A DNA stretch of 64,000 nt from Pyrinomonadaceae bacterium (GTDB taxonomy: Bacteria > Acidobacteriota > Blastocatellia > Pyrinomonadales > Pyrinomonadaceae), in contig JALHNX010000003.1 in the NCBI GenBank assembly GCA_022843305.1, positions 4,272 through 68,271 of the forward strand, read 5' to 3'. The position numbers and the translations under genes are program-made. Below are positions 34,565 through 45,723 of the stretch, piece by piece. Position 1 is the stretch's first letter, and every line of letters begins with the position of its first letter. The notes beneath the pieces were generated by a model, which was not told the DNA's origin, did not search any database, and saw nothing but the letters and a program-made list of their open reading frames with translations.

Positions 34565-35830
34565 ATGATACCGATTTCCGAAGCCATAAAAATCATTGAG
34601 CGCGAAAGTTTCGTGCTTCCGCCGGAAACGATTGATTTAGAAGATTCGATCGGGCGCGTTCTGGCGGAAAATATCAAAGCCGATATGGATTTGCCGCCGT
34701 TCGACCGTTCGCAGATGGACGGTTTCGCGGTGCGTTCGGACGACACGAAAAACGCGCCTGTTAATTTAAGAATTATCGGCGAATCGGTGGCGGGCAAAGG
34801 TTTCGACCAAAAAATGAAATCGGGCGAAGCCGTGCGAATTATGACCGGCGCACGCGTTCCCGACGGCGCGGACACAGTGCAAAAAGTTGAAGTAACAACA
34901 GAAAAAGACGGTTTTGTCGAGATTTTAGAAACTGCGAAACCGGCACAGAACATCAATAAATTCGCGTCGGAAATCAAAATAGGAACGAAAGTTTTTGCGA
35001 AAGGTGAGATTATCAACGAGCAGATGATTGCCGCGTTCGCATCGTTCGGTTATGCGAAATTGAAAGTTTTTCAAAAACCGCAGGTTTCGATATTTTCGAC
35101 CGGCAGCGAGATCGTCGAAATCGGCGAAACGCCGCAGAAAGACCAGATTCGCAATTCAAATTCGATGATGCTCAAAATTTTAGCCGAACGCGCGGGCGCC
35201 AATGCTGAAATTCTGCCGCAGGTTCACGACGATTTTAAAACGCTCAAAACAGCAATCGCCAAAGCTGTCGGTATTAAGGCAAAAGGCAAAAGGCAAAAGG
35301 CAAAATCTGATGAAAAGCAATCGCAAATCAAAAATCGCAAATCGCAAATCCTCATCATCACGGGCGGCGTTTCCGTGGGCGATTACGATTTTACGAAACC
35401 CGTTCTGCGCGAACTCGGCGCGGAGATTTTCTTTGAAAAAGTTTCATTAAAACCCGGCAAACCGGCGGTTTTTGCGCGATTAAATGACGTTTTGATTTTC
35501 GGTCTGCCCGGAAATCCGGTTTCGGTCGCGGTAACATTTTATCTTTTTGCGAGATACGCGATCTGGCGGGCGCAAGCGGCGAAAAACTGCGAGTTAAAAC
35601 GCGGTTTTGCGGTTTGTTCGGACAAAATAAAAGGCGCGAAAGAGCGCGATTGTTATCTGCCGGTTTCGCTTTCAACCAATAAAAAAGGTGAATTAATTAT
35701 CGAATCCCTGCGCTTTTCGGGTTCGTCGAATTTCATCGCCTTTTCCCGCGCCGACGCACTGGTTTTCATTCCGCAGGGCAAAAATCTGGAGAAAGACGAC
35801 GTTGCCGAGATTTTATTTCTTTTAAATTAG
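34565..35830 (+). CDS. moeA: Molybdopterin molybdotransferase
   Basis: ATG at 34565 (MIPISEAIKII). MoeA blocks PPFDRSQMDGFAV, RIMTGARVP, ITGGVSVGDYDF, KPGKP, GLPGNPVS. Confidence 0.9.
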   Translation: MIPISEAIKIIERESFVLPPETIDLEDSIGRVLAENIKADMDLPPFDRSQMDGFAVRSDDTKNAPVNLRIIGESVAGKGFDQKMKSGEAVRIMTGARVPDGADTVQKVEVTTEKDGFVEILETAKPAQNINKFASEIKIGTKVFAKGEIINEQMIAAFASFGYAKLKVFQKPQVSIFSTGSEIVEIGETPQKDQIRNSNSMMLKILAERAGANAEILPQVHDDFKTLKTAIAKAVGIKAKGKRQKAKSDEKQSQIKNRKSQILIITGGVSVGDYDFTKPVLRELGAEIFFEKVSLKPGKPAVFARLNDVLIFGLPGNPVSVAVTFYLFARYAIWRAQAAKNCELKRGFAVCSDKIKGAKERDCYLPVSLSTNKKGELIIESLRFSGSSNFIAFSRADALVFIPQGKNLEKDDVAEILFLLN

Positions 35831-35831
35831 T

Positions 35832-35900
35832 CCACGAAACACACAAAATATACAAAAATTATTATTCTGACTTTTTCGTTTCTTTCGTGTGTTTCGTGGG
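35832..35900. repeat. Palindromic intergenic element, family A copy 1
   Basis: CCACGAAACACACAAAATATACAAAAA...TTTTTCGTTTCTTTCGTGTGTTTCGTGGG, directly after the moeA stop. Confidence 0.8.
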
Positions 35901-35942
35901 CAAACTTCTTTTTTTATCCGTTATGTTGTAATTTCATAACTT

Positions 35943-36677
35943 ATGCAAAGTCCCGTCGCGCTGGCGCACGAAGCGATTCACGAAACGGTCGAAAACATTC
36001 TGAAATCGGCAGAACGCGGAAAAATTCTCGACGTTCCGGCGGGCGAAGGCGCGCTGGCTTTGCGTCTGAAAAATCTCGGTTTTACAGTTTTTTGCTGTGA
36101 TCTATACACCGAAATTTTCAAACTTTCGGAGACGGAAATAAAACGCGGGAATCTGGACGCGAAACTTCCTTATGACGATAAATCTTTCGATTATCTGGTT
36201 TGCGTCGAAGGATTGGAACATATCGAAAATCCGGCGAACGCGATGCGCGAATTTGCGCGGATCTTAAAAGAAAACGGCACATTGATCGTCAGCGTGCCGA
36301 ACATTATGAATATCGAAGAGCGTCTGAAATGGCTTTTTAACGGCTACACGTCGCATTTCAAACCTTTGTCGAGCGAGGCTTTGGCGGAAATTTCCAAAGA
36401 ATTCGGCGGAATGGAAGAAATCGCGCTCCACGTTAATCCGATCGGCTATTCGGAAGTTCGCTATTTGCTGGAGAAAAACGGTTTTTCATTGCAAAAAACA
36501 TATCTCGACAAACCGAAAAAAAATTCGTGGGCGTATTTTCCGCTCGCCGCTTTGATCAAGCTCGCGGCGCGTTTCAGTTCCGCGAACAAAAAAAAGTCGC
36601 GCTGGACAGATGAACTCAATTCCGACGAGGTTTTGCTCGGCGGAAACACTTTGATTTTTGAAGCAAAGAAGAATTAA
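35943..36677 (+). CDS. Class I SAM-dependent methyltransferase
   Basis: Motif I ILDVPAGEGALALRL, post-I CCDL, FDYLVCVEGLEHIENP. Confidence 0.85.
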   Translation: MQSPVALAHEAIHETVENILKSAERGKILDVPAGEGALALRLKNLGFTVFCCDLYTEIFKLSETEIKRGNLDAKLPYDDKSFDYLVCVEGLEHIENPANAMREFARILKENGTLIVSVPNIMNIEERLKWLFNGYTSHFKPLSSEALAEISKEFGGMEEIALHVNPIGYSEVRYLLEKNGFSLQKTYLDKPKKNSWAYFPLAALIKLAARFSSANKKKSRWTDELNSDEVLLGGNTLIFEAKKN

Positions 36678-36686
36678 ATTTTTCTG

Positions 36687-36765
36687 CCCACGAAACACAC
36701 GAAAGATACGAAAATAAGACTAAAGATTGCTTTGATTTTTTGTTTATTTCGTGTGTTTCGTGGGC
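36687..36765. repeat. Palindromic intergenic element, family A copy 2
   Basis: GCCCACGAAACACACGAAA (36687-36705) and TTTCGTGTGTTTCGTGGGC (36747-36765) are perfect 19-nt arms. Confidence 0.85.
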
Positions 36766-36776
36766 AAAAAACAAAT

Positions 36777-37247
36777 ATGAAAAAACTTTCGCATTTTGAC
36801 GAACAGGGCAAGATAAAAATGGTTGACGTTTCGGAAAAAGAAACGAGCGCGCGCCGCGCGGTCGCGTCCGCCAGTGTTTTGCTGAATAAAGAAACGATTG
36901 AAATTCTGCGGTCGAACGAAAACCCCAAAGGCAATCCCCTCGAAATTGCGCGAATCGCCGGAATTATGGCGGCAAAACGGACTTCCGAACTGATTCCTTT
37001 ATGTCATCAGATCAATCTTTCAAAGGTTGACGTGAAAACCGAAATTACGGACGCGGGCGTTTATCTCGAAGCCGAAGCGAAAACCGCGTCGCAAACCGGC
37101 GTTGAAATGGAAGCCTTGACGGCGGTGTCGGTCGCCGCGCTGACGATCTACGACATGTGCAAAGCCGTGCAGAAAGACATCGTCATCACGGAAATCCGGC
37201 TCGAATCGAAACAAGGTGGCAAAAGCGGTGATTTTAGGCGTAACTAA
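36777..37247 (+). CDS. moaC: Cyclic pyranopterin monophosphate synthase
   Basis: LSHFDEQGKIKMVDVSEKETSARRAVA..., IAGIMAAKRTSELIPLCH and TGVEMEALTAVSVAALTIYDMCKA. Confidence 0.92.
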   Translation: MKKLSHFDEQGKIKMVDVSEKETSARRAVASASVLLNKETIEILRSNENPKGNPLEIARIAGIMAAKRTSELIPLCHQINLSKVDVKTEITDAGVYLEAEAKTASQTGVEMEALTAVSVAALTIYDMCKAVQKDIVITEIRLESKQGGKSGDFRRN

Positions 37248-39423: not shown

Positions 39424-40293
39424 ATGGCGCAAGATCTTTCGGCGGAAAACAAAAAAATCAAACAAATCTCAAACAGAATCAGAAAAAGTGATTTCAAATA
39501 TCATTTTCACATCGAATCTTTCGGCGTAAAAATCGGTTTTTCGACAAATTCGGTGGAAGCTCTCGAAGCCGTCAAACAAGCCGTCGGAATTTATCTTCCC
39601 GATTGTTTCAAGGAAATTGAAAAGACCGAAACCGAACATAATTTTTTATTCGTCTGGAACAAAAGCGAACGCGACTCGCTTTATAAAAACGGCGAGCGGA
39701 TTTTCAGCCGCGAACGGCGCGAAACTTCGGTTGAAAGCGCGGCTTCGCGGATTCGCCTGACGGTTGCCGAATTTGCCGCCAAACGCGTTTTTATTCACGC
39801 GGGCGTCATCGCAAGGAAAGGTAAAGCGGTCATAATTCCGGGCAGAAGTTTTTATGGAAAAACGGCTTTGACCGTCGCACTGGTCAAACGCGGCGCGATT
39901 TATTATTCGGACGAATACGCGATTTTGGACGCCGAGGGTTTTCTGCACCCGTTTCCGAAAATGCTTTCGGTGCGCGGCGAAATTGACGATCATAAACAAA
40001 TTGACTATCCGGTCGAAAAATTCGGCGGCACGGCGGGAACCGAGAAAATACCTGTCGGAATGGTGTTGATTACCCAGTACAAAGCAAGAGCGCGGTGGAA
40101 TCCGAAGATTTTAAGCCCGGCGAACGGCGTGATTGAAATGCTTCAGCATACGATTCCGATTCGGCAAAACCCGCAATTCACACTTGAAGTCATCAATAAA
40201 ATCGCGAAAGAATCCGTTTTTGTAAAATCGAAACGCGGCGATGTTTCAAAAATCGCTGACTTGGTTCTGCATTTTATTGATAATAATCTTTAA
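39424..40293 (+). CDS. HPr-kinase-related (HprK-like) P-loop kinase
   Basis: VFIHAGVIARKGKAVIIPGRSFYGKTALTVALVKRGAIYYSDEYAILD shows a Walker-A-like GxxxxGKT in the context typical of HprK C-terminal-like kinases. Family assignment is from memory. Confidence 0.65.
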   Translation: MAQDLSAENKKIKQISNRIRKSDFKYHFHIESFGVKIGFSTNSVEALEAVKQAVGIYLPDCFKEIEKTETEHNFLFVWNKSERDSLYKNGERIFSRERRETSVESAASRIRLTVAEFAAKRVFIHAGVIARKGKAVIIPGRSFYGKTALTVALVKRGAIYYSDEYAILDAEGFLHPFPKMLSVRGEIDDHKQIDYPVEKFGGTAGTEKIPVGMVLITQYKARARWNPKILSPANGVIEMLQHTIPIRQNPQFTLEVINKIAKESVFVKSKRGDVSKIADLVLHFIDNNL

Positions 40294-40479
40294 CTTTTTT
40301 TCAGTCCCCAAAATATATTTATCTTAATATAGATTGAAGTTAAGGTTAAAATTGCTTTTTATTACAATGGTATTAAAAAATAAAAAACTTGATCGAGGAT
40401 TCGCACTAAATAATTTTTACGAAAACCCGACCAAGTTTTTTTGTTCGATTCTTAAACCGATAAATTTCTAATTAGAACA

Positions 40480-41681: not shown

Positions 41682-44513
41682 ATGCAAGCAGTAAAGTCAA
41701 AAGAAGAATCAATCGAAGTTCGCGGAGCGCGGGTTCACAATCTGAAGAACATCTCGTTTCGCCTTCCGCTCAATAAATTAACAGTCGTCACGGGCGTTTC
41801 CGGTTCGGGAAAATCATCTCTCGCGTTCGATACGATTTACGCCGAAGGGCAAAGAAGATACGTCGAATCGCTTTCGGCATATGCGCGGCAGTTTCTTGAA
41901 CGAATGGACAAACCCGACGTTGACGAGATTTTGGGAATCGCGCCGGCAATTGCGATTCGACAAAAAAATTCGACGCGCAATCCGCGCTCGACCGTCGCCA
42001 CACAAACCGAAATTTACGATTATCTGCGCCTGCTTTTTGCGCGTGTCGGGCAGACGTTTTGTTATGTCTGCTCGCGGGAAGTAAAAAAGGATTCGCCCGA
42101 ATCGGCGGCTGACGAAATTCTTGAAAATCTGGCGGAAGGAACGCGGTTTTACGTCCTTTTTCCCGCCGAACACGATTTTGAAATCAAACCCCAAAAGACC
42201 AAAACCAAAGACCAAAACCCGATTCCGCATCTGATGAGCCTGATGCAGCAAGGTTTTACGCGACTTTTCCGCGACGGCAAAACGATCGAACTTCAAAAAC
42301 CCGAAGATTATCCGTTTAAGGATTTTGAAAACACGTTCGTGATGATTGACCGCCTGAAAGCCGACAAATCAATTCGTCAAAGATTAGTTGATTCGCTCGA
42401 AATCTGTTTCCGCGAAAGCGGCGCGGGCGTGATTAAAACGGCAGAACCGTCTGCGGTAGCGGATGGTTTACGCGTCGGAACATTCAACTTTTCGGAAAAA
42501 TTTATCTGCAAATACGACGGCACGCTTTACGAAGAACCCGAACCGCGTCTTTTCAGTTTTAATTCGCCGTTCGGGGCGTGTCCGCTTTGTCAGGGTTTCG
42601 GCAACACGATTGACATTGATTTCGAGTTGGTTGTGCCGAACGCGAATCTTTCCATCGAAGACGACGCGGTCGAGCCTTTTTCGCGCCCGCAATACGATTG
42701 GGCGAAAAAGGAACTTTTGCGATTTGCGCGAAACGAAGGAATTGACACGAAAATTCCTTTTGCCGATTTAGCGGGCGAAGAAAAACGCGTAATTTTTGAA
42801 GGCAAGCGCGGTTGGCGCGGTGTGCGCGGATTTTTCAACTGGCTCGAAACGAAAAAATACAAACTCCACGTCCGCGTTTTTATGGCAAAATATCGCGGCT
42901 ACACGACTTGCCCGGAATGCAAAAGCGGAAGATTGCGGAAGGAAGCGCAAGCCGTGCGGGTCGGCGGAAAATCGTTGCCCGAAGTCGTTAATTTTGCGAT
43001 CAACGACGCGCAAAACTTTTTTGATACGCTGGAATTATCCGAAGAACGCGAAAAGATTGCCGAAAAACTTCTTTTGGAAGTCCGCCGCCGTTTGAAATTT
43101 CTGGTTGATGTCGGGTTGGATTATTTAACGCTAAACCGGCTTGCTTCAACGCTGTCGGGCGGCGAAGCACAGCGCATTCAACTGGCGACAAACCTCGGTT
43201 CGCTGCTCGTCGGCGCACTTTACGTTTTGGACGAACCTTCAATCGGACTTCATCCGCGAGACAATTCAAGATTGGTAAAAATTCTCGAAAACCTGCGCGA
43301 CATCGGCAACACGGTGCTGGTTGTCGAACACGACGAAGAAATGATGCGCTCGGCTGACCATATTCTCGACATCGGGCTTTACGCGGGCGAACTCGGCGGA
43401 AATCTGGTTTACGAAGGCGATTTTGTCGGGCTGATTCAGGACGATATTTCGCTGACTGCCAAATATTTGCGCGGTGATCTGGAAATCAAAGTTCCGCAGA
43501 AACGAAAAGAGCCGACCAAGCAAAAAATCGAAATCAAAGGCGCGCGCGAAAACAATCTGAAAAACATTTCGGTCGAAATTCCGCTCGATATGTTGGTTTG
43601 CGTAACCGGCGTTTCGGGTAGTGGAAAATCAACGCTCGTGCATGACATTCTTTACGCCGGAATCAAGAAACAACGCGGCGAATGGCAGGGTCAGGTCGGA
43701 CATTTCAAGGAAATCAAAGGCGCGGAGCTGGTTGACGACATCATTCTGGTTGACCAATCGCCGATTGGCAGAACGCCGCGCTCGAATCCCGTGACATACA
43801 TCAAGGCTTACGATGCGATCCGCGAAGTTCTCGCTTCGACCAACGCTTCAAAAGCAAAAGGCTTTAACGCTTCGCATTTTTCGTTCAACGTTCCGGGCGG
43901 ACGCTGCGAAACCTGTCAGGGAAGCGGAACGGTAACGGTCGAAATGCAGTTTTTGGCGGACATCGAACTGACCTGCGAAGACTGTCGCGGAACGCGTTTC
44001 CGCGACGAAATCCTCGATGTCAAATACAAGGGCAAAAACATCGCCGAAGTTTTGCAGTTGACCGTCCGTGAAGCGATTTTGTTTTTCAAGGAAACCGCAA
44101 AATTAGTCAATAAATTAAAAGTCATTGAAGCCGTCGGACTCGGTTATTTAAGATTAGGACAATCGGCAACGACACTTTCGGGCGGCGAAGCGCAGCGCGT
44201 CAAATTGGCGGCGCATTTAGCGACGAAAACAAAATCGAAAACGCTTTTTATCTTTGACGAACCGACAACCGGCTTGCATTTCGACGACATCAACAAACTG
44301 CTGACCGCGTTTCGCGCATTGATCGAAAACGGCGGAAGTCTGCTCGTCATCGAACACAATCCGGACGTCATAAAAACCGCCGATTACGTCATTGATCTCG
44401 GACCCGAAGGCGGCACAGGCGGCGGCGAAATCGTCGCCACGGGAACGCCTGAAGAAATTGTCAAAGTAGAAAATTCGCACACCGGACAATACTTAATGGA
44501 ATATTTGAATTAG
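41682..44513 (+). CDS. uvrA: Excinuclease ABC subunit A
   Basis: ATG at 41682. [14 protein letters not shown], two Walker A motifs ([12 protein letters not shown] and [11 protein letters not shown]), ABC signatures LSGGEAQR (twice), and zinc-finger Cys pairs. Confidence 0.97.
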
Positions 44514-44518
44514 ATTCC

Positions 44519-44591
44519 GCCCACGAAACACACGAAAAATACGAAATAATTTTTGACTTTATTTTTCGTTTCTTTCGTGTGTTTCGTGGGC
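44519..44591. repeat. Palindromic intergenic element, family A copy 3
   Basis: GCCCACGAAACACACGAAAAATACGAAA...TTTCGTTTCTTTCGTGTGTTTCGTGGGC. It starts 6 nt after the uvrA stop and ends 10 nt before the next ATG. Confidence 0.85.
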
Positions 44592-44601
44592 AAAAATAAA
44601 T

Positions 44602-45723
44602 ATGGATTTAGAAACCATCAAAACACCGTCGCTGATCGTTGATTTTCAAAGAATGAAACGCAATGCCGGGCAAATTACAGCTCGCGCCAAAGCGTTAAAT
44701 GTCGCTTTGCGTCCGCACGTTAAAACGCATCGCTGTCTTGAGATTGCGCGGCTTCAAACCGAAAACAACTTCGGCGGAATTATGGTTTCGACGCTTTCGG
44801 AAGCGCATTTTTTCGCTGAAAACGGGTTTTCGGATATAACTTACGGTGTGCCAATCGAGCGCGGAAAATTTGCGGAAGTAATTGCGATTTCCAAAACTAT
44901 TGAACGTTTTGCAGTTTTGACGACGGACGCGGAAACGATTGAAGGATTAAACAACGCGGCGAAACACGAAAACGCGAAACTCGGTGTTTTTCTGAAAGTT
45001 GATGTCGGTTATCATCGCTGCGGAGTCGAACCGCACACGAACGAAGCGTTTGAAATTCCCCGAAAAATCAGCGATTCGACAAACCTCGATTTCGCCGGAA
45101 TTCTGACACACGCCGGACATTCCTATCACGCCGACACGCCCGAAAAACTGCTTGCGGTCGCGCAAGAAGAAAGAAATAAAATGCGCGATCTGGCGGAAGA
45201 ACTTCGCCGAAAAGGAGTTGAAGTTCCAACCGTCAGCATCGGTTCAACGCCGACGATGAGCGCGATTGACAACACGGAAGGCATCACCGAACTGCGCTGC
45301 GGAAACTATATTTTTTACGACGCTTTTCAGGCGACTTTGGGAAGCTGTAATGTTTCCGATTGCGCTTTAACCGTTCTCGCGGCGGTCGTTCACCGGGATT
45401 CGACGCGCCGAAAAATCGTCGTTGACGCAGGCGCGGTCGCCCTTTCCAAAGATCGCGGCGCGGTCGAATTCGACGCGCATTGCGGTTATGGGCGCGTTTA
45501 CGATTTGGCGGGAAACGATTTAGCTTTGCGCGTCGGTTCGCTTTCGCAGGAACACGGCGAGATTTTTGTTGAAGATGAAAAGATTTTTAATAGTTTAAAA
45601 GTCGGCTCGCGCGTTCGAATCTTAGCAAATCATTCTTGTTTAACTGCCTTGCAGCATTCGCATTATCACATTCTCAACGGCGGAAAAATCGTTGACCGCT
45701 GGGAAATCAATCGCGGTTGGTAA
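44602..45723 (+). CDS. PLP-dependent D-threonine aldolase / D-serine dehydratase-like (DSD1 family, alanine-racemase fold)
   Basis: TPSLIVDFQRMKRN, the PLP-lysine context LRPHVKTHRC, and the C-terminal SQEHG...ANHSCLT. Confidence 0.8.
   Translation: MDLETIKTPSLIVDFQRMKRNAGQITARAKALNVALRPHVKTHRCLEIARLQTENNFGGIMVSTLSEAHFFAENGFSDITYGVPIERGKFAEVIAISKTIERFAVLTTDAETIEGLNNAAKHENAKLGVFLKVDVGYHRCGVEPHTNEAFEIPRKISDSTNLDFAGILTHAGHSYHADTPEKLLAVAQEERNKMRDLAEELRRKGVEVPTVSIGSTPTMSAIDNTEGITELRCGNYIFYDAFQATLGSCNVSDCALTVLAAVVHRDSTRRKIVVDAGAVALSKDRGAVEFDAHCGYGRVYDLAGNDLALRVGSLSQEHGEIFVEDEKIFNSLKVGSRVRILANHSCLTALQHSHYHILNGGKIVDRWEINRGW

Follow-up and report, generated by a model that had tools for sequence, protein, structure and literature searches.

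A class I S-adenosylmethionine (SAM)-dependent methyltransferase (MT) gene lies between the molybdenum-cofactor genes moeA and moaC in the genome of a Pyrinomonadaceae bacterium, and it is flanked exactly by two copies of a palindromic element that we term family A. The locus is part of a 64,000-nucleotide stretch of contig JALHNX010000003.1 (hereafter called the window), which holds a third copy of the element downstream of uvrA. This arrangement raises the question of whether the MT gene arrived as a cassette bounded by these elements, as proposed in a preliminary description of the window, or whether the gene and the elements came together in some other way. Our analysis indicates that family A most probably consists of dispersed, gene-less palindromic repeats of the same kind as repetitive extragenic palindromic (REP) sequences, REP doublets forming hairpins (REPINs) and MITEs (miniature transposable elements with inverted repeats). 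These repeats would have been inserted after speciation, and their bracketing of the MT gene would be incidental.

The source genome (G000) is a metagenome-assembled genome (MAG) of 5.72 Mb in 322 contigs, with 47% G+C and 95% completeness, and all genomes with which it was compared are likewise fragmented draft MAGs. Domain matches confirmed the gene identities that had been assigned earlier to moeA, the MT gene, moaC and uvrA. The features central to this study are as follows.

34565..35830, + strand: moeA (molybdopterin molybdenumtransferase; MoeA_N 4.9e-41, MoCF_biosynth, MoeA_C)
35830..35901, no strand assigned: family A copy 1; left arm degenerate (GTCCACGAAACACACAAAA), right arm consensus; -26.9 / -29.6 kcal/mol
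35943..36677, + strand: class I SAM-dependent MT; a generic methyltransferase with no equivalog or specific family
36686..36765, no strand assigned: family A copy 2; outer arms both perfect (GCCCACGAAACACACGAAA and its mirror image); -42.3 / -39.9 kcal/mol
36777..37247, + strand: moaC (cyclic pyranopterin monophosphate synthase; MoaC 1.7e-55)
41682..44513, + strand: uvrA, upstream of copy 3 (UvrA_DNA-bind, UvrA_inter, ABC_tran)
44519..44591, no strand assigned: family A copy 3, between uvrA and the DSD1-like gene; -39.9 / -44.7 kcal/mol
44602..45723, + strand: D-serine dehydratase-like (DSD1-like) gene, starting 10 nt past copy 3 (Ala_racemase_N and D-ser_dehydrat)

The three copies had previously been placed at 35832-35900, 36687-36765 and 44519-44591, and they are present there with ends that differ by 1-2 nt at most. 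Each copy sits just behind a plus-strand stop codon and just before the next start, as had also been described: the measured distances from the stop codons of moeA, MT and uvrA to the elements are 0, 8 and 5 nt, and those from the elements to the next ATG are 41, 11 and 10 nt. On either strand, each copy folds as one long hairpin (-27 to -45 kcal/mol, z -6.7 to -10.9). A 17-mer representing the family A arm (CCACGAAACACACGAAA) has 10 matches in the window when up to 3 mismatches are permitted, whereas 100 dinucleotide-preserving shuffles of the window yield a mean of 0.65 and none of them reaches 10. An Rfam search produced no match above the gathering threshold (best 37.6 vs 100), with miRNA-precursor look-alikes as the only hits.

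The individual copies differ in detail. The outer arms of copy 2 enclose a 3-nt internal loop, followed by an inner ACGAAA pairing and then by an AT-rich loop. Copies 1 and 3 have in common the segment TGACTTT(A)TTTTTCGTTTCTTTCGTG, in agreement with the earlier observation. Copy 1 opens with a G that doubles as the third base of the moeA stop codon, TAG (35828-35830), and this TAG, at which the moeA frame ends, is formed at the left edge of the copy (35800-35835). Relative to the congener G002, ~6 nt are missing here, including the original TAA, and this small deletion accounts for the degenerate left arm of copy 1.

The methyltransferase gene between moeA and moaC

Orthologues of the MT (65-86% identity) were found in 14 of the 17 other genomes of the genus, and in all 14 the gene resides between moeA and moaC. 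A family-wide scan, using one genome per species, covered 57 loci from MAGs (L037-L093) that are labelled mostly as Pyrinomonadaceae, Pyrinomonadales, Blastocatellia or Acidobacteriota, and the order moeA-MT-moaC is kept at ~45 of these loci. Over the congeners and these loci together, the orthologues are 59-86% identical. The commonest MT-moaC junction is a 4-nt stop/start overlap, which occurs in at least 22 relatives, and most of the ~45 loci have either this overlap or a gap of 5-35 nt, with no element. In five more distant congeners (G016, G012, G008, G001 and G007), as well as in G009 and G004, the MT-moaC gap measures 0-26 nt and there is no palindrome next to moaC. Because this gene order is conserved in the absence of the elements, the MT gene is ancestral at this position and the elements are later additions. 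The ancestral state is a tight moeA-MT-moaC gene string that was probably translationally coupled.

These findings make it highly improbable that the MT gene is a mobile cassette, either integron- or transposon-like, that was inserted between moeA and moaC with family A elements as its boundaries. Relatives that carry the MT gene at this position without elements, which the preliminary description had named as the observation that would contradict its proposal, are found in many genomes. The exact flanking of the gene by two copies does favour a cassette, as does the fact that bracketing exceeds what random placement would produce, with six genes of G000 bracketed by family A compared with 1.75 expected (P = 0.007). 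However, the five other bracketed genes are unrelated housekeeping genes, including RNase PH and a threonine-synthase-like gene, and the excess reflects a mild clustering of family A copies rather than cassettes. In addition, the moeA-MT and MT-moaC sites are filled in different sets of species (for example, G006 has a filled MT-moaC gap and an empty moeA-MT gap), and their occupancy must therefore have arisen by separate events. The bracketing of the MT gene thus represents two independent insertions into neighbouring gaps and not a cassette boundary.

A comparison with integron attC cassettes leads in the same direction. Like an attC site, family A is an imperfect palindrome, in the range of 60-140 nt, with conserved ends and a variable centre, and it is located beside a single promoterless gene. 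In contrast to attC sites, it lacks the RYYYAAC/GTTRRRY core sites, its copies are dispersed in housekeeping operons rather than arrayed, and the gene that it brackets is syntenic across the bacterial family. Look-alike elements with TTGTCCACGAAA-type ends, which putatively surround a different gene in another genome, would fit an incidental bracketing.

The conservation of the MT gene in ~45 Pyrinomonadaceae genomes suggests, on the basis of gene order, a functional link with molybdenum-cofactor synthesis that is nowhere annotated. An annotation error is removed if the gene is regarded as a putative conserved partner of the molybdenum-cofactor genes instead of a recent cassette.

Architecture and distribution of family A

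With up to 2 mismatches, the arm 17-mer matches the G000 genome 100 times in the forward and 99 times in the reverse orientation, while the reversed 17-mer, used as a control, gives 0 matches. A genome-wide count of the motif had been recommended earlier, and the motif does recur. When arms are paired, a strict threshold gives 75 elements and a more permissive threshold 102, and their modal length is 73 nt. The consensus reads TTTGCCCACGAAACACACGAAA-nnn-ACGAAA, where nnn denotes the 3-nt internal loop, followed by an AT-rich loop of ~10-35 nt and then by the mirror image. Each arm contains three (C)ACGAAA words spaced 9 nt. The ends of the consensus element are TTTGCCCACG...CGTGGGCAAA, and the palindrome runs three bases past the terminal GC...GC into TTT/AAA. 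A second subfamily has arms of the form AACCGCGAAACACGCGAAA.

The stems comprise at least 19 continuous pairs, and base changes preserve them. Stem position 5 changes on both sides together (A-T in 50 copies, G-C in 31), position 14 is an A-T pair in 83 copies, a G-C pair in 18 and a mismatch in 1, and positions 1-2 are GC/CG in 69 copies versus AT in 18-20. Across the copies, arms are nearly invariant and loops are very heterogeneous, with only the loose consensus ATAAAAC...TTTCTTTT. A de novo hairpin census of G000 yielded 1516 hairpins whose stems have 14 or more pairs, of which 1305 are intergenic, and family A is one of many families among them.

Palindromic family A is confined to part of one genus, with 0 to ~65 elements per genome. 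Numbers of arm matches are high in G000, G015, G010, G009 and G006 and amount to 0-2 in G001, G002, G004, G005, G007, G008, G011, G012 and G014. The high 17-mer counts seen in two other Blastocatellia families come from different repeats: in G021 the 17-mer is part of a non-palindromic repeat of ~120 nt (~160 matches), and in G022 it is part of an imperfect hairpin with ends AATAGCCCA...TGGGCTATT. Patchy distribution as a sign of horizontal spread is weakened by this result, although the patchiness within the genus stands. In one case (L121, G021:C146, 1400-1500), the ~120-nt repeat abuts the 3' end of an IS200-like gene. A link between family A and REP-associated tyrosine transposases (RAYTs) by way of this half-element was rejected, because the 17-mer there belongs to the different, non-palindromic repeat.

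The regular spacing of words raises the possibility that the arms are binding-site arrays for a host DNA-binding protein, with three CACGAAA words on one helix face, and that they act as double-stranded DNA in nucleoid organisation, supercoiling or replication. This explanation would account for the 9-nt word phasing, for the strand symmetry of the elements and their lack of transcription-related bias, and for the presence of the same 17-mer within unrelated repeats of two other Blastocatellia families. However, no candidate protein was identified, the mirrored covariation in the stems points to pairing or symmetry itself, and congeners with 0-2 copies would lack such sites altogether. We therefore consider a role as binding arrays to be improbable.

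Two observations concern composites of family A with other repeats. GC-rich REPIN-like elements sit inside the AT-rich loops of several family A hairpins (C124:4197-4342, C169:569-813, C155:~10088 and C169:~1589), which hints that these loops occur in single-stranded form in vivo and are used as targets. Approximately 17 family A hairpins are embedded as the central part of a MITE of ~150 nt, which has terminal inverted repeats of 21 bp (GTAATGCCTCAATAAAAAGTT) and clear target-site duplications of 8 bp. Its copies (C119:12137-12286, C82:13558-13707, C19:3152-3301, C18:18001-18150 and ~13 more) are 88-98% identical, and several are at contig ends. This MITE is a secondary vehicle and not the mechanism by which ordinary family A copies spread.

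Insertion behind stop codons and turnover at orthologous gaps

The three gaps occupied in the window were compared with the orthologous gaps of relatives. Between moeA and the MT gene, G000 and G002 carry orthologous family A copies that share an unusual ACACAAAATATAC in the left arm, and G011 carries the AACCGCG subfamily. At the same site, G010 (L041) has an unrelated non-coding insert of 385 nt that contains nested inverted repeats of its own, and seven close relatives (among them G003, G006, G014, G004, G013 and G009) have a gap of 25-46 nt with no palindrome. Between the MT gene and moaC, family A is present in G000, G006, G010 and one further MAG, and ~12-15 others have palindromes made of other words (CACGAAC, ACGAAT, CACAGAG, CACAGAT, GGTCAGTGG, GTTAGTT) or GC-rich double hairpins. 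In the gap from uvrA to the DSD1-like gene, G000 alone has family A and G011 has the AACCGCG subfamily, while G006 and G017 have GC-rich REPIN-like elements, G005 has another hairpin, and four congeners (G013, G010, G014 and G009) have an empty gap of 9-22 nt. Because each of these tiny gaps is unoccupied in certain species and filled by family A or by other palindromes in others, the elements are later insertions. As judged from these comparisons, very small gaps right behind stop codons appear to be colonised repeatedly and independently.

In another Pyrinomonadaceae MAG, gap 1 of locus L052 contains a CACAGAT-word hairpin that opens with TTATCCACA, which is the textbook DnaA-box sequence. 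This likeness is probably a coincidence.

Arm sequences differ between species in a characteristic manner. The G010 and G006 copies in the MT-moaC gap differ by a mirrored three-base patch in the arms (CGAAAT/ATTTCG vs CGCGCA/TGCGCG), and their loops are nearly identical. The arm variant of this G010 copy, CCACGCGCAYACACGAAA, has 34 + 28 matches in G010 and 0 in both G006 and G009, and a set of twelve copies of it in G010 share the same arms but have heterogeneous loops. Similarly, the variant GCCRCGAACAAACAC has 25 + 27 matches in G011 and 19 + 23 in G003, species that carry this variant next to moaC, and it is rare (5-14 matches each) in the three other congeners searched (G014, G002 and G006). 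This species-specific pattern may fit repeats that co-evolve with an arm-recognising factor and arm-restricted gene conversion alike. The idea that arms were overwritten in place, based on the same loop occurring with other arms in G006 and G010, was treated only as a conjecture, given that this loop type recurs elsewhere and the flanks differ.

Orthologous copies with mirrored changes in both arms also bear on the possibility that the hairpins are made in place, through word-multiplying slippage and a mirroring template switch, with the family A word arising many times or spreading by gene conversion. The arms do consist of tandem words, many other hairpins in these bacteria have locus-specific words, and even a lone relic copy in G002 still has mirrored arms. 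However, ~100 loci share arms of 20-28 nt, a GCCC terminus that is not repetitive and a loose consensus in the loop, which excludes independent origin, and empty and filled orthologous sites differ by a whole unit. An origin of family A in place is thus quite unlikely.

Placement of family A relative to genes was assessed with a crude map of long ATG-initiated open reading frames, which makes the following values approximate. Only 3 of the 102 copies are inside an open reading frame, and there are 53 copies in tandem, 20 in convergent and 10 in divergent gaps, compared with 60, 12 and 11 expected (p = 0.05). By these counts, family A occurs outside same-strand gaps as well. In tandem gaps, the median distance from the upstream stop codon to the start of the element is 9.5 nt. 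Elements start within 18 nt of a stop codon in 71% of cases, whereas random placement would give 17% (per bp) or 46% (per gap). No direct repeat exceeds expectation at any offset among 78 ordinary family A copies examined for target-site duplications. Long hairpins of all families occur in 41% of convergent, 21% of tandem and 18% of divergent gaps.

These placement data invite the explanation that family A elements are host-selected regulatory hairpins behind genes (terminators or insulators, 3'-end stabilisers, or RNase III sites), whose copy number is set by selection and not by selfish spread. The proximity to stop codons agrees with such a role, and so do the mild enrichment of family A in convergent gaps (20 vs 12 expected) and the prevalence of long hairpins there. 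The stems are also very stable, and RNase III accepts stems of at least 19 continuous pairs. Moreover, whichever strand is read, the upstream flank is rich in A and the downstream flank rich in T, much as in Rho-independent terminators, which likewise have a stable hairpin just behind the stop codon.

Despite these similarities, we regard a host-selected regulatory function as unlikely. The family A stem is AT-rich and 25-28 pairs long, its loop measures 10-35 nt, and the right side of the stem is adjoined by AAA and then mixed A/T rather than by a U-tract. A consensus scan for terminators and promoters called none at any of the three window copies. Furthermore, moaC and the DSD1-like gene start 10-11 nt past the hairpin, which leaves no room for a promoter of their own. 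As the element was inserted between ancestrally coupled genes without providing a promoter, efficient termination would silence moaC. There is no excess of G-U (G-T) pairs in the sense of the upstream gene (26 vs 28 A-C mismatches) and no significant orientation bias as judged by an asymmetric loop motif (13 sense vs 7 antisense). Finally, the distribution is patchy, with close relatives lacking elements at the same sites. The suggestion that the copies are REP-like terminators or insulators in short same-strand gaps therefore holds in part: they appear REP-like, are extragenic and lie next to stop codons, but they are not restricted to same-strand gaps, and a terminator or insulator role is not supported by the consensus scan. 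Family A copies part genes that were formerly translationally coupled, and it should be possible to measure how they affect the expression of operons.

As dispersed repeats, the interpretation that we favour, family A copies entered gaps that were originally 0-30 nt long, behind stop codons and without target-site duplication. They might spread as single-stranded hairpins with the help of a trans-acting factor that recognises the arms, as REPINs depend on RAYTs. Arm symmetry would be kept either because mobility or binding needs it, or by arm-to-arm and copy-to-copy correction. Copies between operon genes would be transcribed through. With moaC and the DSD1-like gene starting so close downstream and no room for a promoter, such copies could at most form an mRNA hairpin that affects processing or stability, and would not be efficient terminators. 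A more specific scheme is possible, albeit doubtful: family A would consist of mobile hairpins that act without target-site duplications or RAYTs, carry phased word arrays read by a trans-acting factor, are directed to the ~10 nt immediately after stop codons, and acquire species-specific arm 'dialects' through arm-restricted conversion.

Candidate mobilising genes and likeness to known systems

Several results on possible partner genes weigh against our preferred interpretation. G000 has 10 Y1_Tnp genes, and family A arms are within 1.5 kb of none of these and of none of the 30 in five family-A-rich relatives, all of which are draft MAGs. Likewise, CACGAAA arms are present at 0 of 13 loci in G000 and 0 of 29 in five relatives that encode PF05635 proteins (23S rRNA intervening-sequence protein or Avd-like). 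Because the MAGs are fragmented (95% complete in the case of G000), a partner gene could have been missed. Two further points count against the same interpretation. Invariant arms together with heterogeneous loops are not explained by simple copy-and-paste unless there is strong selection or conversion acting on the arms. In addition, the repeated use of the same small gaps by different families could reflect site-specific hairpin formation in situ instead of insertion.

Both gene types are associated with other hairpins in the same genome. Four Y1 (IS200-type) genes encoding 170-200 amino acids have long hairpins on either side that belong to other abundant GC-rich families, an arrangement that resembles REPtrons and RAYTs. 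The 13 PF05635 loci of G000 and the 29 of five relatives lie nearly all between inverted arrays of 7-nt words, and the words that flank these genes recur in the commonest gene-less hairpins of G000. The loci are, for the Y1 genes in full and for PF05635 as examples:

C243:4883-5755, C60:1933-2798, C78:11245-12016, C143:8477-9243: Y1 genes with flanking GC-rich hairpins
C23:24992-25303, C35:31039-31344, C192:1597-1908, C21:36796-37113: PF05635 loci

A link to PF05635 cassettes thus holds for the 7-nt-word arrays and was ruled out for family A by the counts given above. Where two family A arms lie 125-1500 nt apart, their contents are nested repeats or ordinary genes, and no transposase-bearing copy was seen in this fragmented assembly.

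Among known systems, the closest kind is REP/REPIN. REP and REPIN sequences with RAYT transposases have been described in Proteobacteria (Bertels & Rainey 2011, PMC3116915; Di Nocera et al. 2013, PMC3733652). Family A resembles them in being extragenic and high-copy, with two inverted arms around a short variable spacer that form one long hairpin, in lacking target-site duplications, in its location just behind genes, and in having species- or strain-specific variants with patchy occurrence among relatives. Within G000 itself, the other GC-rich hairpin families flank Y1 genes as REPtrons do. In contrast, family A ends lack a GTAG/CTAC or CGTC/GACG tag, its arms are AT-rich with three phased CACGAAA words, and none of the 40 Y1 loci in six genomes has flanking family A arms. 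Membership therefore fails on the tag and on the association with RAYTs.

Classical MITEs such as the Correia elements of Neisseria and ERIC are likewise small, gene-less, terminally inverted and intergenic, and they are co-transcribed with their neighbours as hairpins. Correia hairpins are cut by RNase III. Unlike classical MITEs, ordinary family A copies have no target-site duplication, and the assemblies revealed no parent insertion sequence whose ends match. Classical MITE membership of ordinary copies fails on this duplication, which is found (8 bp) solely in the ~150-nt composite subfamily.

Family A also has features in common with the word-array hairpins of Pyrinomonadaceae, in which the arms consist of a tandem short word and its complement and which occupy the same gaps in relatives. 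Cyanobacterial STRR repeats can be grouped with these hairpins as a further likeness. However, the arm of family A is fixed and dispersed, ends in a GCCC terminus that is not repetitive and has a period of 9 nt in place of a locus-specific 7-nt word, and it never flanks PF05635 genes, as the 7-nt-word arrays do in G000 and five relatives. In Xanthomonas, inverted GGGAATC heptamer arrays are located between aligned or convergent genes, up to ~50 nt from stop codons (Rehm et al. 2015, PMC4692102). These arrays and family A both consist of word arrays with their complement near stop codons, but family A alone has one fixed arm at ~100 loci.

Among the papers that could be searched, none ties Blastocatellia or Pyrinomonadaceae to such repeats. 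Family A is thus a well-delimited repeat family in a little-studied phylum, with REPIN-like behaviour in the absence of a REPIN tag or transposase. The same genome holds families with the classical transposase arrangement, and a direct comparison with family A is possible. The proximity to stop codons, the species-specific arms and the reuse of tiny gaps may help to explain how hairpins spread and are maintained. Such repeats also have a practical consequence, in that they break MAG assemblies, and several copies lie at contig ends.

Lastly, the window contains a further long hairpin at 40374-40453, in the gap behind a gene that ends at 40293, and this hairpin is a sub-threshold microRNA-precursor look-alike in Rfam.

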